This document shows positions 3 through 32,368 of a stretch of DNA of 64,000 bases, piece after piece. A program made the translations under genes and the position numbers. This DNA comes from an uncultured Enterobacteriaceae bacterium (GTDB taxonomy: Bacteria; Myxococcota_A; UBA796; SXON01). The stretch's first letter is position 1; the number at the start of each line of letters is the position of its first letter. The notes beneath the pieces are model-generated. The model searched no databases. It had not been told where the DNA came from and saw nothing but the letters and a program-made list of their open reading frames with translations. The DNA is taken from contig CAYWGD010000023.1 in NCBI GenBank assembly GCA_964457335.1, positions 1,127-65,126 on the forward strand. The letters run 5' to 3'.

Positions 3-2900
3 GAGGGCAAGGTCGCGGCGGAGCAGGCCAAGGGCGCCGCCGAGGCCGCGGCCCCCTACGGCGAGGACGCGCTCGCCCCGCAGGCCGAGCCCGAGACGCT
101 CACCGCCGCGGTCGGCGGGGGCGGGGGCGGCGGGGGCGCCGCCGGCGACGTGGCCGACGACGAGGTCGGCGCGATCGTCGCCGAGGAGCGGAACCGGCCT
201 GAGATCGACGCCGCGATGGCGCAGGGCCAGGCCGACATGGGCTCCGCGGAGTCGGACCAGGCCAAGGCCGAGACCGAGGCGCGCGAGCAGGCCAAGACCG
301 AGGTCGACACCGCGGTGGCCGAGAAGACGGCCGAGCAGGAGGGCGAGAAGGCCTCCGCCCAGGCGGACGTCGAGGCCGAGCGCAACAAGTGGACGGACGA
401 GCAGAAGAAGACCGTCGACGACGCCCGCGAGAAGGCCGACGGGCACGCCAAGACCGCGGTCGACGAGGCCGCGAAGCAGAAGGAGACCGCCGACAGCGAA
501 GCGGGCAAGGAGGTCGAGAAGGGCGAGACGGAGGCGGAGGCCGCCAAGGAGAAGGGCGAGAGCGACGCGCGGGCGGAGAAGGAGAAGGCCGAGTCGGAGT
601 CCGACGGGGTGTTCGGGTGGCTCGCGTCGAAGGCCAAGGCGTTCTTCGACGGGATCAAGGCCGGCATCAAGAAGGCGTTCGCGTTCGCCCGGGACATGGC
701 GAAGAAGGCGATCGAGGCGGCCAAGAAGCTCGCGGTCGCGGCCATCGAGAAGGCGCGCGAGGCCGCCATCGCCGCGGTGCGGCTCGCGGGCGACGCCATC
801 ATGGCCGTCGGCGACGTGGCCCTCGCCGCGTTCCCCGAGGCGCGCGAGAAGTTCCGCAGCGCCATCAAGGAGCGCGTCGCCGCCGCCGAGGAGACCATCA
901 ACCAGGCCGCGGACTTCCTGAAGGAGGCCGCCCAGAAGGCGCTCGACTTCCTCGGGGGCGCGCTCGACGCCGCGTTGGGGCTGCTCGAGAAGGCCTACCT
1001 CGCCGCCGTGGACGCCGTCGCCTCCGCGGTCGACGGCGCCATCAAGGCCGCCAAGGCCGCCGCCGAGGCCCTCGGCGGCTTCATGGCGCTCATCAAGGAC
1101 GTGGCGTCCGACCCCGGCGGCTGGATCGGCAAGCTCGGCGCCGCCGTGGTGGACGGCATCAAGAACCACCTCTGGACGGCCTTCAAGACCGCCGTGAAGG
1201 AGTGGTTCGACCAGAAGCTCGAGGAGGTGCTGGGGCTCGGCACCGCCATCTGGGAGTTCCTGTTCAAGGGCGGCATCAAGCTCGCGGATGTCGCCAAGAT
1301 GGCGTGGCAGGCGCTCATCAGCGCCATCCCCGGCGTGCTCATCGGCATCCTCATCGAGAAGCTCGTCGCGATGATCGTGCCGGCCGCCGGCGCCGTCATG
1401 GTCATCATCGAGGGGCTCCAGGCCGCGTGGGGCACCGTGAGCCGCATCCTCGCGGCCATCGGCAAGTTCATCGCCTTCCTCAAGGCCGTGAAGGGCGGCG
1501 GCGGCGCCCCCGCCTTCGCCACCGCCGTGGCCGCCGGCGCCATCGCGGTCATCGACTTCGTCGCCAACTGGTTGCTCGCCAAGCTCCGCAAGCCCGCCGG
1601 CAAGGTCGCCGGCAAGCTCCGCGCCATGGCCAACAAGATCATGGCCAAGATCAAGAAGGCCCTGAAGAAGGTCGCCAAGGCGCTGAAGAAGGCCGGGAAG
1701 AAGATCAAGGGCCTCTTCAAGAAGAAGGGGGGGAAGAAGGGGAAGAAGGGGAAGGAGAAGGACAAGCGCGCGAAGGATCAGGAGCGGTTGGACAAGGCGC
1801 AGCGGGAACTGACTCCGAAGATAAAATCGATGTTGGACAAGGGTGTGCGCGGAGTCGTACTGAAGGCTCGATTGCTCGCCTGGCGGGTGCAGTACCGCCT
1901 GTCGGCCCTGGAGGTCACCGGCGGAAAGTCGTTCCGAATTCGTGCCAAGGTGAATCCAACAGCGGAGCTGATTTCCGGCGTCGAGATGGATGTCGATGAA
2001 CTGCTGATCTTTGTGCGCGAGGTGGCGGCGAAGATGGCTAGCAGCGATCGGGTCAAGCGCGAATCCGCTGCGATCGCGGGTTCCGACCGTGGCAAGGAGC
2101 TTCCGTCCCCCGTAAAGAAGGGCGAGGACCCGCGGATGGGTCGCCAAGTGGACATCCCCGCTGGCACCAGCCATATTGGTGCCGCAGAAGGATTGAACGC
2201 CACCGGAGCGCTAGAGCGAGGCAAGGTCCGGGACGTCAATGCACTGACGCCCGGAGGAGAAATCAGCGCGGTCGCCCGGATCCAGCAGCCGCCGTTCGCA
2301 CCGTTGCCCGCGCGGCATTCAACTGCGGTGGTGAAAGAACCAAGCTCGGAAGGCGTGGGCTTCGAAAAAGGCGCGTACGCGGAGATTACCAAGCGACTCG
2401 GTCCGGGGTTCCCGGAGCACAAGCGCGGCCCCCTCACCGCGCAGGCCTTGGACACGTTCGCGCGCACAGGCAAGGCTCCGGCCGGGTTCTCCGAGGCACA
2501 ACTCCACGCGTTGCGCGTGACCATGTTCGGCGCGGAACGGAGCCGAAGTGCCGCGGCCAACGTCTGGGGCCAGATGTCAATCGACCTGATGAAAGCAGGG
2601 GCTAGCCCGGAGGACATCCTCGGAAAGGATGAGACCGGAGGCAAGCACCCGCTGTCGCCGAGGGGTGTCGGTGAGGACAAACGTGAACTCGAGGATCGCC
2701 TTGCACGAGTCAAGAGCGGAGAAGCCGGGGGAGAACCGACGGCCGGTGAGAAGCGGCAAATGGATCGGGAGGTAGCCATGATTACAGCTTGGCTCAAGTC
2801 GTTGAAGGACCTGTCTTTCGACGACAAGGCATCCATGGAAGAAAAGAAAAATCACATAAAGGCTGAAATCGAGCGTAGGATGATGGACTCTGTGAAGTGA
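3..2900 (+). CDS. Large polymorphic-toxin-like protein, 5' partial (coiled-coil/amphipathic core, hydrophobic segment, poly-Lys linker, variable C-terminal domain)
   Basis: The frame is open from the left window edge with no stop before the GTG at 150, so the gene starts upstream. The translation shows an Ala/Glu/Lys-rich coiled-coil-like stretch and hydrophobic segments ([46 protein letters not shown]). [17 protein letters not shown] linker follows, then a non-repetitive roughly 370-aa C-terminus encoded in visibly lower-GC DNA. The layout recalls DUF4157-type/eCIS-associated polymorphic toxins (from memory, not searched). Confidence 0.75.
511..919 (+). repeat. Direct repeat copy A (409 bp) inside the toxin gene
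   Basis: Aligns with 3928-4336 at a constant offset of 3417 nt. Only two mismatches were seen: 521 g vs 3938 t, and one codon aag vs cag (K vs Q, F vs C on the antisense track ORFs). The encoded peptides are otherwise identical (…[21 protein letters not shown]…INQAADFL). Confidence 0.9.
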
Positions 2901-2901
2901 G

Positions 2902-3495
2902 GTGGCGGTGAGCAAGCGAGGCGTGCGGTTGATCCCTCGGGTCGAGGTTCCGGTGGAGCGGCTGATCGACATCTCCCTGGAGCGCGGCTGGCAGCTTGAG
3001 AAGGCCATCGGCCGGGCGCCGAACGAAGGGATCTCCGGCGAGTTGGAGTACACGATTCCTGGCTCCGATACGATCGTGTACCTGCGGGATGACCTGCTCC
3101 TGGGGTTCCCGTTCATCACGGTGATCGGCCCTGACCAGGCGAACGTGGCAGCGGACCTCTCGCGAGACTTCGATCCGTGGCCTGAGCCCGATCTGTTGGC
3201 TTGGTGGGACCGGGCAGAAGGCTCGGGCGACATCGACGACAAGGTGGACGCCGTGCTCTACCTCGGAACGAACGCCGGAGAATCGGTTGATGAACGGTAC
3301 ATGACGCGGATCGAGAAAGCGCTGAGCGATCCAGACAAGGACGTGCGCAACGCAGCGGTCGTGGCGGCCGCCTACACCGACTGGCGCGTGTTTCGCGATC
3401 GTCTTGCCGAGATTGCGCAAAAAGATCTGGATCCAAAGGCCCGGGAACGCGCGGAGCATGTGGTGCGCGGGTGGAGAACCGAGGATGGGGGCTGA
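2902..3495 (+). CDS. Putative cognate immunity protein (N-terminal alpha/beta-like region + C-terminal HEAT-like repeats)
   Basis: GTG start 1 nt after the toxin stop (tga 2898-2900), preceded by gaggtgg. Alternative GTG at 2908. C-terminus has a HEAT/PBS-lyase-like motif (LSDPDKDVRNAAVVAAAY…LDPKARERAEHVV). It shares the lower-GC composition of the toxin C-terminal region. The immunity role is inferred from position only. Confidence 0.6.
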   Translation: MAVSKRGVRLIPRVEVPVERLIDISLERGWQLEKAIGRAPNEGISGELEYTIPGSDTIVYLRDDLLLGFPFITVIGPDQANVAADLSRDFDPWPEPDLLAWWDRAEGSGDIDDKVDAVLYLGTNAGESVDERYMTRIEKALSDPDKDVRNAAVVAAAYTDWRVFRDRLAEIAQKDLDPKARERAEHVVRGWRTEDGG

Positions 3496-3677
3496 CCGCG
3501 CCCTTCAGAAGGATTTGGGCCACGCAAAATCCGCCCCGGGCGGCCCGATCACCGTTTGATCCAACGTTTAACCGGACTGGGCGACTCCGTGACACGCGGA
3601 AGCCAACGCTGAGCAAACGTGCGAGCGGACAGCTGGGTGCACGCATGGCGACGGCACAGCCGATAGTCCACCACCCG

Positions 3678-3922
3678 CGCGAGGGGGGCTGGAGGGCGGC
3701 GCGGGCTCCCAAACATGACAGGCCGAAGGCCACATCGAGATCCAACGCCCGCGCCGGTCGGCCCGCGCGCAGCGGGCCGACCGAGGCCCTTCGGGCCGCT
3801 CCACCGCAGGCGGGGGGCGAAAGGGCTCGCTCGTGCGCAAGCCGAGCGAGACATCGTACGGCCCGGAAGACACCCGACCCGGCGTCTTCGCCGGGGGCGC
3901 GCCCAACTGAAGCCCTGACACC
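3678..3922 (+). repeat. Structured intergenic repeat element, copy 1 (with a roughly 60-nt internal insertion)
   Basis: Starts cgcgaggggggctggagggcggcgcggg and ends gcgcccaactgaagccctgacacc. Contains hairpin ggtcggcccgc-gcgca-gcgggccgacc and a second GC hairpin (cgacccggcg-tctt-cgccgggggcg). Collinear with copy 2 apart from an extra segment gctccaccgcaggcgggggg…catcgtacggc. Confidence 0.85.
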
Positions 3923-3927
3923 TGCGT

Positions 3928-4336
3928 AGGTCGAGAATGGCGAGACGGAGGCGGAGGCCGCCAAGGAGCAGGGCGAGAGCGACGCGCGGGCGGAGAAGGA
4001 GAAGGCCGAGTCGGAGTCCGACGGGGTGTTCGGGTGGCTCGCGTCGAAGGCCAAGGCGTTCTTCGACGGGATCAAGGCCGGCATCAAGAAGGCGTTCGCG
4101 TTCGCCCGGGACATGGCGAAGAAGGCGATCGAGGCGGCCAAGAAGCTCGCGGTCGCGGCCATCGAGAAGGCGCGCGAGGCCGCCATCGCCGCGGTGCGGC
4201 TCGCGGGCGACGCCATCATGGCCGTCGGCGACGTGGCCCTCGCCGCGTTCCCCGAGGCGCGCGAGAAGTTCCGCAGCGCCATCAAGGAGCGCGTCGCCGC
4301 CGCCGAGGAGACCATCAACCAGGCCGCGGACTTCCT
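3928..4336 (+). pseudogene. Orphan fragment of the toxin gene (direct repeat copy B)
   Basis: Near-identical to 511-919. It lacks the upstream and downstream parts of the toxin gene. A TAG lies immediately upstream in frame (3927-3929). At 4337 the homology stops abruptly and glycosylase-like sequence begins. Confidence 0.85.
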
Positions 4337-4337
4337 C

Positions 4338-4603
4338 AACGGCGCACCGCCCTCCGCGCCCGTCGGTCCGTGGACCGCCTGCTACGTCGCCATGCGCGCC
4401 GGTCGCGACCCCGACGCCTTCCTGGGCGGCGACACAACCTCCTGCGGAGGGCCGCCGACGCCGCGGGCGGGCGCCCGCCCCCCGCCGCGCTCCTCGCCCG
4501 CGCCGAGCCCTGGCGGCCGTACCGGGCCTACGCGGCCCAGCACCGGTGGGCGACGGACGCATCTCGATTCGAGAGCACGCAGCGGAGCGTCCCTCCGCGC
4601 TGA
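4338..4603 (+). pseudogene. 3' remnant of an AlkA-type (HhH-GPD) DNA glycosylase, 5'-truncated and frameshifted
   Basis: One frame reads VGPWTACYVAMRAGRDPDAFLGGD. From about 4430 a second frame reads NLLRRAADAAGG…LLARAEPWRPYRAYAAQHRWATD, ending at tga 4601-4603. Together these resemble the C-terminal part of AlkA-like proteins (E. coli AlkA has …GRWTANYFALRGW…ERWKPWRSYALLHIW, recalled from memory). No N-terminal part is present. Confidence 0.65.
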
Positions 4604-4653
4604 CGCCGGTACTTGCGGGTTCGTGAGGGCAGAACGCCCCACGGGAGGTACCG

Positions 4654-5418
4654 ATGAGGAAGCAACGACTCGAAGGCAAGGTGGCGATCGTGACGGGCGC
4701 GAGCTCGGGGATCGGGCGGGCGACGGCGGTCGCGATGGCGCGGGAAGGCGCGCGGGTGGTGGCCGCGGGCCGCCGCGCGGGCGAGCTCGAGGCGACCGTG
4801 CGCCTGGCCGAGGAGGCCGGGGGCGAGGCGATCGCCTGCGTCACCGACGTCACGGACGAGGCGCAGGTCGAGGCGCTCGTGGCGCGCGCGATGGCGCGCT
4901 ACGGGCGCGTGGACATCGGCGTGAACGCGGCCGGCGCCACGTTCGCGGGGGCGCTCACGCACGACCTCGACGTGTCCGCCTTCCGCGACTGGCTCGACGG
5001 CCACCTCGTGAGCGCGTTCCTGTGCACGAAGCACCAGGTCCGCGCGATGCTCGAGTCCGGCGGCGGCAGCGTGGTGCAGATCGGCACGTTCGTCGGCGAC
5101 ACCAAGGCGTTCCCGGGCACCGCCGGCTACGCCGCGGCGAAGACGGGCCTCCTCGGGCTCACCCGGACCGTCGCGGCCGAGTACGCGACGCGCGGCATCC
5201 GCGCCAACGTGCTCTCGCTCGGCGGGGTCGACACGCCGATGTTCCGCCTCTGGAACGACGACGCGGCCAGGCGCGAGGGCGCCGCGCAGCTGCACGCGAT
5301 GAAGCGCGTCGGCGCCCCGGACGAGATCGCGAACGCCGCGATCTTCCTCGCGAGCGACGAGGCCTCGTTCGTCACCGGCGGCGTCGTCGCGGTGGACGGG
5401 GGCGTGTCCCTGACCTGA
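4654..5418 (+). CDS. Short-chain dehydrogenase/reductase (classical SDR)
   Basis: GGAGG RBS before the ATG. TGASSGIG cofactor motif and YAAAK catalytic motif. 254 aa. Confidence 0.9.
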   Translation: MRKQRLEGKVAIVTGASSGIGRATAVAMAREGARVVAAGRRAGELEATVRLAEEAGGEAIACVTDVTDEAQVEALVARAMARYGRVDIGVNAAGATFAGALTHDLDVSAFRDWLDGHLVSAFLCTKHQVRAMLESGGGSVVQIGTFVGDTKAFPGTAGYAAAKTGLLGLTRTVAAEYATRGIRANVLSLGGVDTPMFRLWNDDAARREGAAQLHAMKRVGAPDEIANAAIFLASDEASFVTGGVVAVDGGVSLT

Positions 5419-5428
5419 TCGTCGGACG

Positions 5429-5616
5429 CGCGAGGGGGGCTGGAGGGCGGCGCGGGCATCCAAATGTGACAGGCCGAGGGCCGCGCCACGATCCAACGCC
5501 CGCGCCGGTCGGCCCGCGCGCAGCGGGCCGACCGAGGCCCCTCGGGCCGAGACCGGAAGACACCCGACCCCGGCGTCTTCGCCGGGGTCGCGCCCAACTG
5601 AATCCCTGACACACCA
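5429..5616 (+). repeat. Structured intergenic repeat element, copy 2
   Basis: Same start and end blocks as copy 1. Hairpins ggtcggcccgc-gcgca-gcgggccgacc and cgaccccggcg-tctt-cgccggggtcg. Confidence 0.85.
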
Positions 5617-5631: not shown

Positions 5632-5937
5632 CTACCCCTCCTCCTCCGCCAACGGCCCCTCGGCCTGCCCCTTCTCGTAGTCTCGCTCGGCCTTCCGGAC
5701 GGTCTCCTCCTTCGCCTCGCCGGGCTCCGGCGGAGGCAGGTCCGCGCCCGCGCGGCGCGCCTTGGAGAGGCCGATGGCGATGGCCTGGGCCCGGCTCTTG
5801 ATGTCCGGGTCCCCCTCCTTGAACTTCTCCATCTCCTCGCGCACGAACTCGCCCGCCTGCGTCGAGGGCGACTTGCCCGCCGCCTTGTCGGCCCGGGCGC
5901 GGTCGAGGGTCTCCTTCTTCGGCACGTGCCACCCCAC
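5632..5937 (-). CDS. Small conserved hypothetical protein
   Basis: 101 aa. The motif GKSPSTQAGEFVREE…AQAIAIGLSKARRAG resembles a widespread small-protein family that I recall as DUF6496-type (unverified). Confidence 0.6.
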   Translation of the reverse strand: MGWHVPKKETLDRARADKAAGKSPSTQAGEFVREEMEKFKEGDPDIKSRAQAIAIGLSKARRAGADLPPPEPGEAKEETVRKAERDYEKGQAEGPLAEEEG

Positions 5938-5962
5938 GCGACCAACATAGGCACCCGAATGT

Positions 5963-6952
5963 TCAGCGTCGGAGCAGCTCCGCCTCGCGCTCCCGGGTGA
6001 GCGTCCGCGGCCGGTAGCGGCCGTCCGACTGCCTCGGCGGGTCGCCGGTCAGGGTGCGCGCCCACGCCAGCGTGTCCACCGCGGTCTCGCCGAGCGGCCG
6101 CAGGCGGAGGCCCGCGGCGAGCGCGCGGGCGTTGGGCGTGCGCAGCATGCCCGGGGCGTGGGGCGCCCACAGGGGGAGCTCGCTCCAGGGCTCGACGCCG
6201 GTGAGCCGGGCCGGGTCCGTCCAGACGAAGCGAGCGTCGCCGCCCACCGCCGCGCGGATCGCCGCGAGCGCGTCGCCGAAGGTCGTCTCGGGCCCGACCG
6301 CGTTGAAGACGCCGCCCGGGCCGCGCTCCGCGAGGTGCACGATCCACGCCGCCAGGTCGCGCGCGTCGATGACCTGTACGGGTCCGTCGGCCGGCGCGGG
6401 CGCGAGCACGTCGCCGCCCTCGGCCACGCGCACGGGCCAGTAGGTGAACCGCCCCGTGGGGTCGTGGGGGCCGCCGATGAGGCCCGGGCGCACGATGGTG
6501 GCACGTTCGTCGAGCACGCCGGCCACCACGCGCTCGCACGCCGCCTTGAGCGCGCCGTAGTGGGCGGCCACGTCCTCGGAGTGGGGGTCGGGCAGCGCGG
6601 GCGCGTCCTCGTCGTTGGGCCGCGAGAGGTCGGCGTACACCGACACGGACGACACGAACACGTAGCGCTGGCACGAGAGCGCGACGGACTGCGCGACGAC
6701 CCGCGGCACGAAGCCGCACGTGTCCACGATGGCGCCCCAGCGCCGCCCGGCGAGCACGTCGAGGCCGCCGTCGCGGTCGGCATGGACGCGCTCGAGGTCG
6801 GGAAACAAGTCGGGTTGGGTGAGCCCGCGCGTGAGCACGGTGACCGCGTGGCCGGCGGCGCGCGCCGCTTCGACGACGTGGCGCCCGAGGAAGACCGTGC
6901 CGCCGAGGACGAGGATGTTCACGCTCTCGACGTAGCCCGTGCCCGGCCTCAT
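5963..6952 (-). CDS. NAD(P)-dependent epimerase/dehydratase-like (atypical SDR) protein
   Basis: N-terminal ILVLGGTVFLGRH Rossmann motif. The true start may be the GTG at 6922 (VNILVLGG). Confidence 0.8.
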   Translation of the reverse strand: MRPGTGYVESVNILVLGGTVFLGRHVVEAARAAGHAVTVLTRGLTQPDLFPDLERVHADRDGGLDVLAGRRWGAIVDTCGFVPRVVAQSVALSCQRYVFVSSVSVYADLSRPNDEDAPALPDPHSEDVAAHYGALKAACERVVAGVLDERATIVRPGLIGGPHDPTGRFTYWPVRVAEGGDVLAPAPADGPVQVIDARDLAAWIVHLAERGPGGVFNAVGPETTFGDALAAIRAAVGGDARFVWTDPARLTGVEPWSELPLWAPHAPGMLRTPNARALAAGLRLRPLGETAVDTLAWARTLTGDPPRQSDGRYRPRTLTREREAELLRR

Positions 6953-6967
6953 CGCCGGTCCGCCGCG

Positions 6968-7351
6968 TCAGTGCGGCCCGCTCACGCCGACCTCGCGCTC
7001 CCGGAGGAGGTCGCGGATCTCGCCCAGGAGCGCGACCTCCTGGGGCGGGGCCTCGACCGCGGCCGCCTGCTTCCGGCGGAAGAACCGCATGAAGGGCAGC
7101 ACGATGAGGTAGTACAGGCCCGCCGCCTTCAAGACGAACGCGAGGATCGCGTTCAGGAAGCTCCCCAGCTTCACGGGCCCGACCGTGATCGCCGCGAAGT
7201 CGGGCGCCCCGCCGACGAGCCCGATCAGGGGGGTGATCACGTCCGCGACGAGCGAGTCGACCACGCTCGAGAAGGCGGCGCCGATGATGACGCCCACCGC
7301 GAGGTCGATCACGTTGCCGCGCAGGATGAAGTCCCGGAATCCCTTGAGCAT
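6968..7351 (-). CDS. mscL: Large-conductance mechanosensitive channel
   Basis: MLKGFRDFILRGNVIDLAVGVIIGAAF… is the canonical MscL N-terminus. 127 aa. Confidence 0.95.
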   Translation of the reverse strand: MLKGFRDFILRGNVIDLAVGVIIGAAFSSVVDSLVADVITPLIGLVGGAPDFAAITVGPVKLGSFLNAILAFVLKAAGLYYLIVLPFMRFFRRKQAAAVEAPPQEVALLGEIRDLLREREVGVSGPH

Positions 7352-7421
7352 GCCCCCCCCCTGGACCCGGAGTAGCCACGCGCCCCTGCCGCGTGCCTAC
7401 CCTCCTGGGAGGGAGGTGGGG

Positions 7422-7721
7422 ATGCGCGCCGTGTACCGCGTGGTGCCGGATGGGGACCGTTGGGCGATCCAGCTCGAGGGGCGGGGCACGCCGCTCTCGC
7501 TGCACGACCGCAAGAACGAGGCCGTCAAGGTGGCCCGCGACCAGGCGGAGCGCGACATGCCGAGCCGCCTCGTCATCGTGAACGGGCACGGCGACGTGGA
7601 GAGCGACCGCCTCTACGGCACCGACCAGCTCGAAGCGGACGTGCGGGGGATGCGGTCGATGGAGGAGCCCCTGCCCGAGGGGCTCGAGCCCATGCCCGAG
7701 ATGGAGGAGGAGCCGACCTGA
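7422..7721 (+). CDS. DUF2188-like small protein
   Basis: ATG at 7422 preceded by gggaggtgggg. YRVVPDGDRWAIQLEG…HDRKNEAVKVARDQA is the typical DUF2188 pattern. The upstream part of track ORF 7185.. is antisense to mscL and is discarded. Confidence 0.7.
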   Translation: MRAVYRVVPDGDRWAIQLEGRGTPLSLHDRKNEAVKVARDQAERDMPSRLVIVNGHGDVESDRLYGTDQLEADVRGMRSMEEPLPEGLEPMPEMEEEPT

Positions 7722-7733
7722 CGCGCGGATCCG

Positions 7734-9551
7734 CTATCCGCCGAACATCTTCCAGAAGGCGTCGCCGACGCCCACGATGCTCTCGCCCGCGATGACGCCC
7801 GCGCAGAGCACGATGCCGAAACGCGCCGTCCACTGCGGGGCGAAGCGCTGGCCGAGCGCCATCGCCACCGCGCCGACGAGGAAGGAGAGCACCGTGTAGG
7901 CCTGCACCGTGAACGCGAGCCCCACGGAGACGGGGCTCGGGATCCACGGGCGGGCCTTGGCCGGCGCCGTCTTCTCGGCGATGGCCAGCGCCATGGCGAC
8001 CACCGCGGCGATCGCCATCGCCTCCATCGCCATCGGGGGCATGGCGGAGAGCCCCTGCTTGAACACCTCGGCCACCGCCTTCCAGGTGGCCACCGCGGGG
8101 GCGGCCCACTCGTCGGTCAAGAGCTGGGACTTGGGATCCGGGATCAGCACGAGGTAGGCGGCCGAGCCGATGAGCGCGCCGGAAACGACGCCGAGCGCCT
8201 GCGCGACGAACTGGTGGCGCGGCCAGCTGCCGAGCATCATCCCCGTCTTCAGGTCGTGCAACAGGTCGCCGCACTGGCTCGCGGCGCCGCCCGTGACGTT
8301 GGCCGCCATGAGGTTGGACGCCACGTTGGACGGATCGAGCACGCCGAAGGTGAGCTGCGTCACCTTCCCCATCGCGCCCACGGGCGTCACGCCCGTCTCG
8401 CCGGACACGCGGCCCGCCACGATGGCCAGCACGAAGGAGAGGAACACGCCCAGGACCGCGAGCCAGGGCTTCACGTCGAAGAACGCGACCTGCAGCGTGG
8501 TGGAGGCCACGAGCACGATCGCCAGGAACGCCCAGAACGTGCGGCGCGGCACGTCGGTCGGATCGGCCGCGTCGACGGACGCGGACCTCGCCGCCTTCAA
8601 CCCGGACAGCACCGACTTGATCGTGAACGCGAACGACGTGAGCGAACCGACGACCATCAGCGTGACGCCGGGCCACAGGAGCCACTGGACGCCGCTGGTG
8701 AACCACGGCTTCGCGGGGTCGGCGGGGCCGGGCTTCATCCAGCCCGCCTCGAGCGCCATGGGCGCGAAGACGCCCCAGGCCAAGACCGCGCCGAGCACCA
8801 TCGAGAGCGTGGCGCGGAGCCCGATGATGCCCCCGGTCGCCACCATGAGCAGCGAGGGCTCCAGCGAGAACGTCAGGTTCGCGAGGGTGTAGCTCGTCGA
8901 GCCGCCCGTGAACGTGGCCGGGATCGCGAGGTGCGGGGGGTGCGCCACGAGGTTCGCGAGCTTGCTTGCCGCCCCGGCGACGCCGCCGGCGAGCAGCATC
9001 TTCACGCGCGCCACGGCCTCCTCGCCCTTGGCGTACATCTCCTTGAGCGTCTCGCCCGTGGCCATGCCGCCGGGGAACGTGAGCCCGCTGTTCACGAGGA
9101 GCTGCTTGCGCACGGCCACCGCGGCGGTCACGCCGACGAGCCCGACCGAGAGCACCCAAACGGCCAGCTGCGGCCAGGAGAGCACCGTCCCCTCCAGCAG
9201 CGTCAGCGCCGGGATCGGCGCCACGAGCCCCGCCGAGGAGATCGCGGCCGCGGCCGACGCCGCCGTCTGGTTCAGGTTGTTCTCCAGCACGCCGAAGGGG
9301 CGAAGCCGGAACGCCCGCGTGAGCGCCGCCCAGAGCCCGAAGCCGAGGAGCGCGGCGGTGACGGACATGTTCATGCTCCAGCCGATCTTCAAGCCCAGGT
9401 AGATGTTGCACAACGACAGGCCGCCGCCGAGCAGCATGCCGGTGGCGATCGAGCGCGCGGTGTAGCCTCGGTCGGCGGGGACCTCGGAGTCGAGGGCGGC
9501 GTGGGCGGGTTCGGACACGGAGCCTCCGCGGGCCAGGGTAGCCGAATCCAT
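7734..9551 (-). CDS. OPT-family oligopeptide transporter
   Basis: 605 aa polytopic membrane protein. N-terminal block TGMLLGGGLSLCNIYLGLKIGWSMNMSVTAALLGF is typical of the OPT superfamily. Confidence 0.85.
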   Translation of the reverse strand: MDSATLARGGSVSEPAHAALDSEVPADRGYTARSIATGMLLGGGLSLCNIYLGLKIGWSMNMSVTAALLGFGLWAALTRAFRLRPFGVLENNLNQTAASAAAAISSAGLVAPIPALTLLEGTVLSWPQLAVWVLSVGLVGVTAAVAVRKQLLVNSGLTFPGGMATGETLKEMYAKGEEAVARVKMLLAGGVAGAASKLANLVAHPPHLAIPATFTGGSTSYTLANLTFSLEPSLLMVATGGIIGLRATLSMVLGAVLAWGVFAPMALEAGWMKPGPADPAKPWFTSGVQWLLWPGVTLMVVGSLTSFAFTIKSVLSGLKAARSASVDAADPTDVPRRTFWAFLAIVLVASTTLQVAFFDVKPWLAVLGVFLSFVLAIVAGRVSGETGVTPVGAMGKVTQLTFGVLDPSNVASNLMAANVTGGAASQCGDLLHDLKTGMMLGSWPRHQFVAQALGVVSGALIGSAAYLVLIPDPKSQLLTDEWAAPAVATWKAVAEVFKQGLSAMPPMAMEAMAIAAVVAMALAIAEKTAPAKARPWIPSPVSVGLAFTVQAYTVLSFLVGAVAMALGQRFAPQWTARFGIVLCAGVIAGESIVGVGDAFWKMFGG

Positions 9552-32020: not shown

Positions 32021-32219
32021 CGCCCCCCGGGCGCCCGCGGTGTGTCGGAGTTGTCGGCGGCGCAGCGGCGCCCGGGGGTCGGGTGTCCTCCGGGCTCGGC
32101 GCGGAGCGCCTCGGTCGGGCCGCCGCGCGCGGCCCGACCAGCGCGGGCGTCAGGGCGTCCGGTGGCCTCCGGCCCTCCGGGGTGGCGCGCCCGCGCTGCC
32201 CTCCGGCCCCCCTCGCGCG
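32021..32219 (-). repeat. Structured intergenic repeat element, copy 3 (inverted orientation)
   Basis: Collinear with the reverse complement of copy 2 (ggtgtgtc…cctcggtcgggccgc-cgcgc-gcggcccgacc…ccctccggcccccctcgcgcg). The hairpin carries a G/C swap that preserves pairing relative to copies 1 and 2. Confidence 0.8.
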
Positions 32220-32368
32220 GGCGGCTCGGTTGTTCGGGCGGTAGGGGCCCCGCACCACCCGACGGGGCCGGCGCCACGGAGCGGTCCGTCGCGGCTGGGG
32301 AGGCGAGACGTGCGCCCTCGTGTCACGGGCGGGGCCCGATCGACGTTTCGGGCTCCTCGGAGCGACCC

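Follow-up and report, generated by a model that had tools for sequence, protein, structure and literature searches.

A Tme-like effector gene with a probable exchangeable toxin-immunity cassette in a contig of the Myxococcota_A

Contig CAYWGD010000023.1 of assembly GCA_964457335.1 comes from an organism deposited as an uncultured Enterobacteriaceae bacterium and placed by GTDB in the Myxococcota_A. A stretch of 64,000 nt from it (positions 1,127 to 65,126 of the forward strand, hereafter the window) was analysed, and all coordinates are given in the numbering of this stretch. The window opens with the 3′ part of a very large gene (nt 3-2900, + strand; 965 codons and a stop, TGA at 2898-2900), followed by the gene for a small partner protein (2902-3495, + strand). 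The large gene is chimeric: a conserved part that is native to the genome is joined to a C-terminal domain of foreign composition, which is accompanied by its partner. We consider it probable that it is the 3′ end of a Tme-like effector gene of a contractile injection system (CIS), carrying an exchangeable toxin-immunity cassette. Toxicity, neutralisation, catalysis and delivery in the host organism would follow by analogy with Tme, Sle1, the haloarchaeal DUF4157 toxins and the toxins of Geller et al. (2021).

Effectors of this kind are already known, being CIS effectors associated with DUF4157 which possess a long helical or transmembrane region, a C-terminal functional domain and sometimes a downstream antidote (PMC8213781, PMC11126660, PMC11566945, bioRxiv 10.1101/2025.11.06.686954). 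In the libraries and literature searched, no description was found of the C-terminal domain family, of a partner combining an α/β domain with HEAT repeats, or of orphan arrays and a core-tip contrast in this effector class.

Composition break within the effector gene

The third codon position marks the chimera sharply. In codons 1-591 of the 5′-partial open reading frame (ORF) the GC content at this position (GC3) is 0.995, with only three codons ending in A or T, while the last 374 codons have a GC3 of 0.719 and 105 such codons. A maximum-likelihood fit, which gains 97 log-likelihood units, puts the change point at codon 591 (nt ~1776), and GC3 per 60-codon window stays at 0.98-1.00 up to nt ~1800 and at 0.62-0.83 afterwards. 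Sliding-window GC likewise falls from ~0.70-0.79 to 0.57-0.64 between nt ~1650 and ~3600 and then rises again. As GC1 and GC2 are nearly flat across the break, the Lys-rich linker described below excepted, the shift is one of codon usage and not of amino-acid composition. A preliminary description of this DNA had marked a less GC-rich stretch here, with many codons ending in A or T in the C-terminal part, and both its extent and its character are borne out by these plots.

The lower GC continues beyond the effector gene. The partner ORF has a GC of 0.643 and a GC3 of 0.79, and the trailing DNA behind it (3496-3675), which forms part of the cassette and is continuous in the Logan contig, has a GC of 0.644, before the value returns to 0.75 from nt 3676. 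A nearby gene of the short-chain dehydrogenase/reductase (SDR) type (4654-5418) has a GC3 of 0.98. In the whole window the lowest-GC 1.9 kb begins at nt 1601-1701, with 0.623 against a mean of 0.737 (standard deviation 0.031).

The junction is also present in independently assembled sequence. Logan contig L003 (SRR32005135) crosses the junction and matches window 890-3703 with 100% identity, and a second contig (L084) begins where a downstream repeat copy, copy B, ends and continues into the SDR gene. Neither is broken except at repeat ends, and the junction is thus not an assembly chimera. An exact look-up of the protein yielded only Logan contigs carrying this sequence.

A contrast of this type is not restricted to the window. 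In 39 of 39 other family loci measured, low-GC cyanobacteria included, the GC3 of the conserved part of the effector (the core) is equal to or higher than that of the C-terminal domain (the tip), with a mean difference of 0.146. The difference in the window (0.29) is among the largest, and the largest of all are those of two loci bearing the orphan arrays discussed below (L026, 0.49; L065, 0.41). Compared with adjacent CIS genes, family mean GC3 is 0.04 higher in the core and 0.07 lower in the tip. The contrast is a property of the family, as it is with Rhs cores and tips, and is best read as reflecting a higher turnover of the cassette. A conspecific locus was sought in the GTDB genomes, where the best relative has 56% protein identity, and in JGI metagenomes with a degenerate exact-pattern scan, which gave five loci, all with nucleotide identity of at most 75%.

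An effector family associated with contractile injection systems

The large protein has 365 homologues in the protein collection (best E = 1e-264). Full-length relatives have ~1600 aa and alignments begin at subject residue ~630-700, placing ~650 N-terminal residues upstream of the window. Relatives of the effector were detected in 219 GTDB species genomes, spread over the Myxococcota, Cyanobacteriota, Acidobacteriota, Actinomycetota, Chloroflexota, Pseudomonadota and other phyla.

The visible part of the protein is modular in structure. Residues 1-169 (nt 3-509) form an Ala/Glu-rich segment, probably a coiled coil (A 25%, E 15%), which is weakly conserved, with 33-44% identity to relatives. 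This is followed by a conserved helical/transmembrane core (residues 170-540, nt 510-1622; GC3 0.99-1.00), matched by the core hidden Markov model (HMM) with E = 3e-176 and possessing hydrophobic segments at residues 433-476 and 499-527 according to a hydropathy scan. A Lys-rich linker (residues 541-590, nt 1623-1775) with 44% Lys, encoded by AAG codons, comes next and is the recombination boundary of the cassette, beyond which lies the C-terminal globular domain. A long ORF of which 965 codons are visible, with an Ala/Glu/Lys-rich helical composition and hydrophobic segments, is what characterises Tme-like genes.

Searches of the window proteins against Pfam, NCBIfam, PHROGs and PADLOC returned nothing significant besides a sub-threshold HEAT_2 match in the partner. 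The core region of one relative (P0001) matches four PHROG tape-measure families (best E = 3e-8), while the window protein itself has no PHROG match at E <= 0.01. There are also precomputed annotations on a few relatives, namely PF27499.1 (on P0009, P0059 and P0116) and PF27758.1 (on P0023), which may cover part of the family, either core or tip; these are recent accessions that the Pfam-A copy used for the family searches did not return.

The link with DUF4157 comes from the relatives. The domain PF13699 (eCIS_core, formerly DUF4157) is fused near the N-terminus of P0001, P0023, P0026, P0047 and a 1847-aa protein at the P0128 locus, with a fused copy being scored in only three of 18 close homologues. 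In other cases (L085, L073/L086) a small DUF4157 protein is encoded by a separate gene just upstream of the effector, a split arrangement that matches the Sle1/Sle2 type (bioRxiv 10.1101/2025.11.06.686954).

The most complete setting is that of Amycolatopsis sp. lyj-23 (L085, 6526-24527), where a complete CIS cluster has the effector and a 196-aa partner between the small eCIS_core gene and the sheath gene. The order is Pvc16_N, WHD-AAA ATPase, small eCIS_core, effector, partner, sheath, tube, VgrG, PAAR and gp25. In the same cluster a separate 946-aa ORF fills the classical tape-measure position between tube genes.

A homologue of the AAA ATPase, sheath, VgrG or gp25 lies near the effector in ~40 of 80 loci, typically with the AAA ATPase upstream and spike or baseplate genes downstream, and this gene order, found in many loci, fits the definition of a 'tme-like' gene (PMC11126660). 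A place inside a CIS cluster, upstream of baseplate genes, was found for many relatives, among them those of L085, L014, L020, L022, L055, L067 and L077. In three other loci (L001, L086, L087) the effector is without adjacent CIS genes, as it is on its downstream side in the window. On the basis of these sequence comparisons the effector is assigned to the Tme-like, DUF4157-associated family of CIS effectors. The DUF4157/eCIS-like core that had been put forward earlier holds for the relatives, whether fused or adjacent and within CIS clusters. The delivery route had been left open, and here the relatives point to a CIS, since they sit in such clusters in the position of Tme.

The C-terminal domain, its partner and their exchange

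The putative effector or toxin domain (residues ~591-965, nt 1776-2897; GC3 0.72) has a predicted compact fold of α/β plus α type. An AlphaFold2 (AF2) model of residues 591-965, made with an alignment of 52 sequences, is a single compact structure with a predicted local distance difference test score (pLDDT) of 93.4 and a predicted template modelling score of 0.89. As these residues fold as one domain, the composition break coincides with the domain boundary at the Lys-rich linker. Two family HMMs match here, 'mid' at 1779-2063 and 'ct' at 2118-2894, the mid segment (residues 591-689) being moderately conserved and the C-terminus (690-965) divergent.

The domain resembled nothing recognisable to the preliminary description, and this stands after HMM libraries, structure prediction and Foldseek against PDB and BFVD have been run. 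Neither the single sequence nor a profile of 39 sequences found a match among PDB sequences, and the best Foldseek hit of the model in BFVD had E = 0.14, which is no match. The best Foldseek hits in PDB (E = 0.19), to aminoglycoside nucleotidyltransferases and cGAS, were dismissed as noise, with a TM score of ~0.13 and a root-mean-square deviation (rmsd) of ~20 Å.

The domain is the commonest tip type of the family. With an iterated HMM, homologous tips were found in 138 of 200 family tails (~70%), in at least six phyla and with uniform length, the median tail having 269 aa. A word-indexed search with the tip alone retrieved only two fragments, and an exhaustive phmmer search gave 18 representatives, each of which is the C-terminus of a protein of this kind or a fragment of one; none is fused to another delivery domain. 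The tip is a fast-evolving homologous domain and not a rare one-off.

Within this divergent domain a candidate catalytic site can be named. The motif E845-x-x-R848 (nt 2535-2546) has its Glu in 137 of 138 tip sequences and Arg (115 of 138) or His (22 of 138) at position 848, and Y792 (nt 2376-2378) is kept as Tyr in 120 of 138; E255 of the domain model is invariant in alignments A2 and A6. An invariant Glu within a domain of ~28% mean identity suggests catalysis. Readings of E-x-x-R/H as an SLT/lysozyme-like, ADP-ribosyltransferase, HEPN, HExxH or Fic site were each rejected for a misfit in motif order or secondary structure or for want of a profile match.

The downstream gene encodes a putative cognate immunity protein of 197 aa from the GTG at 2902 (195 aa from GTG 2908). 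The start 1 nt after the effector stop that had been assigned earlier does exist as the GTG at 2902; the homologues, which begin MSKRG, favour GTG 2908, so the gap is 1 or 7 nt. The HEAT-type assignment of this protein was on target. The HEAT_2 domain (PF13646) scores 19.3 bits (E = 0.0014), under the Pfam cut-off of 27.7, and homologues in L001 and P0126 carry a precomputed HEAT_2 annotation. In the AF2 model (pLDDT 86.8) an α/β domain (residues ~8-90) precedes paired helices (~95-195). Foldseek matches the model to the HEAT repeats of alphaRep, PP2A-A and AP2 with probability 1.0 and an rmsd of 1.8-2.4 Å over ~90 residues (E >= 9e-3).

The two genes go together across the family. Of the 47 loci that share this tip type, 42 have a partner homologue as the next gene downstream, on the strand of the effector and beginning -1 to +40 nt from its stop, and in L001 and L012 there are two tandem partner copies. 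When tip type is set against presence of the HEAT-like partner, 42 loci have both, 22 have neither, and eight and five have one only (odds ratio 23, p = 2e-8), with the partner being absent in 22 of 30 loci that carry another tip. The iterated HMM built on the main tip type does not reach the other 62 of 200 tails. In 32 loci the alternative tips form ~19 clusters, which are associated with matching downstream genes; for instance, tip clusters 3, 4, 5 and 8 pair with downstream clusters 3, 1, 2 and 4 respectively. One relative (P0117) has the nuclease toxin domain Ntox15 in the tip slot; a Pfam search of 41 alternative tips identified no known toxin domain.

Orphan arrays are a further sign of exchange. 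Downstream of the main gene in a Polyangiaceae metagenome-assembled genome (MAG; L002, 14309-21635), a Chloroflexota MAG (L026, 3873-7102) and a Chloroflexia MAG (L065, 6092-10938), units consisting of a 3′ core fragment, linker, mid segment, tip and partner are repeated up to three times. Their homology arms are 87-95% identical to the main gene over 160-630 nt, have high GC3 and end inside the linker, while their tips and partners are divergent and of low GC3. As the arms end inside the linker, the exchange point is the site of the GC3 change point in the window. A lone core fragment was also seen in a Gammaproteobacteria MAG (L080, 15900-16034).

Relatedness tells a similar story. Family members have a mean pairwise identity of 58% in the core, 28% in the tip and 27% in the partner. 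The best matches to the core of the window protein (64-66%) are Sorangium/Polyangiaceae proteins, with C-termini of only 24-48% identity, and those to its C-terminus (54-64%) are P0001 and P0137, with cores of 56-59% identity. Alternative C-termini, a co-varying downstream gene and orphan modules in relatives are the features of polymorphic toxin systems, reportedly in the sense of Zhang et al. 2012. Judged by such comparisons, the tip and its downstream gene behave as a polymorphic effector/immunity cassette across the family.

The layout proposed in the preliminary description, with a conserved core, a variable C-terminus and a tightly coupled small gene, is real. Its toxin/immunity cassette agrees with the tip-partner association, the orphan arrays, Ntox15 and the discordant relatedness, and needs correction at one end, as the swapped unit is the whole 375-residue globular domain and starts at the Lys-rich linker, not further on.

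Repeats in and around the effector gene may bear on this history. Part of the core (copy A, 511-922, + strand) is repeated directly, with 99.3% identity over 412 nt and a spacing of 3417 nt, as copy B (3928-4339, + strand), and a Logan contig breaks at the end of the repeat. Copy B is an isolated core fragment corresponding to residues 170-306 (GC3 ~1.0), with an in-frame stop (TAG) ahead of it and unrelated sequence behind. It sits 430 nt downstream of the partner gene, after an element resembling repetitive extragenic palindromic (REP) sequences, and has no tip attached and no gene continuation. This H-X-H layout could be the footprint of the integration of a circular cassette by a single crossover (Campbell-type), or a decayed orphan module.

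The REP-like dispersed repeat (3676-3921) contains a perfect 27-nt palindrome (3756-3782, GGTCGGCCCGCGCGCAGCGGGCCGACC), and the low-GC cassette ends exactly at its start. Further copies are present at 5427-5612 and 32097-32224 (- strand), and the first two copies bracket the core fragment and the SDR gene. Between these two, the 317 nt of window 4337-4653 (GC 0.78) show residual codon-phase periodicity, with no protein-like translation and no homology to any sequence compared. A GC-rich hairpin (CCGCCCCGGGCGG, 3531-3543) flanked by AAAAT on the + strand lies in the trailing DNA and has a terminator score for the - strand only; no + strand terminator was found after the partner gene. Further downstream, 5632-9551 looks like a stretch of ordinary housekeeping genes, judged from translations only, with a 101-aa protein, an NAD-dependent epimerase-like protein (5963-6952), MscL (6968-7351) and an OPT-family transporter-like protein (7734-9551), all on the - strand.

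Proposed mechanism, alternatives and known systems

Under the proposed explanation, the conserved part, consisting of coiled coil, tape-measure-like transmembrane region and Lys-rich linker, is native to the genome, and the last 375 residues, the downstream gene and 180 nt of trailing DNA would have been acquired as a cassette by recombination at the linker. The globular domain would act as an enzymatic toxin using the invariant Glu of E-x-x-R/H and the conserved Tyr, and the partner would bind it and protect the producer. By analogy with Tme, the N-terminal part may serve to load the effector into a CIS, whose contraction would expel it, and the transmembrane segment may assist the C-terminal domain in crossing the target membrane or in acting there. 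A more specific proposal, which we put forward tentatively, is that the 375-residue domain is an undescribed enzymatic toxin fold with its active site around these residues, that Tme-like effectors in at least six phyla carry it more often than any other payload, and that it is neutralised by the α/β plus HEAT-repeat immunity family and diversified by Rhs-like orphan arrays recombining at the linker.

Several observations weigh against a toxin cassette. Pfam, NCBIfam, PHROGs, PADLOC, PDB and BFVD gave no similarity to a known toxin and no fold match, and a tip type that is the default in ~70% of members would also fit a conserved non-toxic function. The correlation between tip and partner distances is weak (Spearman 0.31) in a mirror-tree test that is itself made weak by identities of ~27%. 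No sheath, tube, VgrG, gp25 or AAA homologue was found in the 64 kb downstream, the upstream side lying outside the window. One Sle1-type C-terminus (Amycolatopsis mediterranei; RS24535 of strain U32), which may or may not be the domain of the window, was without effect in E. coli, and Sle1 itself is a physiological modulator (bioRxiv 10.1101/2025.11.06.686954). In addition, the lower GC3 of tips is family-wide, so the drop alone gives no date for the event and the swap need not be recent. Much of this would suit a domain and HEAT-like protein that form a conserved non-toxic functional pair of the injection system, exchangeable and fast-evolving, with the domain for example binding the baseplate or tube or acting on a membrane and the partner serving as a dedicated chaperone or assembly factor. 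The presence of one tip type at a constant ~270 aa after the mid segment in at least six phyla, and the generic protein-binding nature of HEAT repeats, agree with such a pair. It is nevertheless unlikely, as diversifying effector/immunity systems are recognised by just such features as orphan arrays with their own partners, tandem partners, and replacement of the tip by Ntox15 and ~19 other clusters whose downstream genes match, the invariant Glu in a hypervariable domain points to catalysis, and a loading chaperone would be expected to track the N-terminal or core part and not the tip.

The composition shift could also have arisen without any transfer in this lineage, if selection or mutation bias, for instance through throttling of expression, kept tip and partner A/T-richer in all genomes. 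The uniform direction of the contrast in the 39 other loci, low-GC cyanobacteria included, would be expected in that case, as would tips that are on average only 0.07 below adjacent CIS genes. Such a bias appears improbable in view of the step-like change at the linker (from 3/591 to 105/374 A/T-ending codons), the extension of low GC into 180 nt of non-coding DNA as far as the repeat, the discordant nearest relatives of core and tip, and the fact that the largest GC3 drops belong to the orphan-array loci L026 and L065. As for the assembly, the 99.3%-identical 412-nt repeat and the REP-like repeats could mislead an assembler, and the junction or the downstream core fragment might then be an artefact of a chimeric contig. 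This is very improbable, since the two Logan contigs, one identical over 890-3703 and the other running from the end of copy B into the SDR gene, terminate nowhere except at the edges of repeats. The reading frame also continues unbroken across the junction, and the 375 residues form a single domain in the AF2 model. The exchangeable toxin-immunity cassette of a Tme-like effector is accordingly retained as the preferred reading.

Engineering of CIS into devices for protein delivery is under way, and the majority of the cargoes they naturally carry have yet to be annotated. The locus points to the commonest uncharacterised cargo domain of a Tme-like effector class present in 219 GTDB species genomes. 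For this domain there is now a structural model of high confidence, with E845 as candidate catalytic residue and the partner as candidate cognate inhibitor. Diversification of this effector class by homology-arm cassette exchange, as in Rhs and CdiA toxins, is also indicated, and the Lys-rich linker, as a natural splice point, would be an obvious site for grafting foreign payloads.

Among the systems described, Tme of Streptomyces davawensis (BN159_7576; Nagakubo et al., 2024, PMC11126660) is comparable in its published architecture and synteny. In both, an exceptionally large ORF encodes coiled-coil and disordered stretches and several transmembrane helices, and a functional domain stands at the extreme C-terminus. 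In the family described here, remote similarity to tape-measure proteins is seen in P0001, an N-terminal DUF4157 in several relatives, and the position between the AAA ATPase and spike/baseplate genes in many of the relatives' loci. The C-terminus of Tme is an EndA-like nuclease which is toxic to E. coli (PMC11126660), whereas the domain of the window is an unrecognised fold with E-x-x-R/H. The window family also differs in its dedicated downstream partner and orphan arrays, there being no mention of immunity in PMC11126660, and in the lack of adjacent CIS genes at many loci, among them L001, L086, L087 and, on its downstream side, the locus of the window.

Sle1 and Sle2 (bioRxiv 10.1101/2025.11.06.686954), compared here by their description, are likewise helix-rich, tape-measure-like effectors with a variable C-terminal functional domain. 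They have a small DUF4157 protein adjacent and the sheath just downstream, which is the exact synteny of L085, and in one case an immunity gene directly downstream, the Sle1-type effector/immunity pair RS14790/RS14785 having been reported. In contrast to several relatives here with fused DUF4157, Sle1 is without this domain, and the toxic Sle example is cytidine-deaminase-like.

In the DUF4157 toxins (PVC-metallopeptidase/eCIS_core), similarly, DUF4157 stands at the N-terminus and is separated from the C-terminal toxin slot by more than 1000 aa of linker (Geller et al., 2021, PMC8213781). Those of haloarchaea also have a downstream gene, and in Halogeometricum neutralisation of the toxins by their downstream genes was shown experimentally (PMC11566945). 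The domain of the window and its HEAT-like partner are not among the toxin and immunity families described, and the N-terminus of the window gene lies outside the window.

The Rhs proteins of E. coli are the classic case of a composition contrast between core and tip, and Rhs and CdiA loci exchange toxin tips by means of orphan modules with core-fragment homology arms. The effector family described here shares with them a GC-rich conserved core, an A/T-richer variable tip, a small downstream gene and arrays of orphan tip-immunity modules. It is an unrelated family with no YD repeats and no FHA/PT domains, and its delivery would be by a CIS and not by a type VI or type V secretion system. A further difference is that the tips of this family are mostly diverged forms of a single domain rather than toxins without relation to one another.

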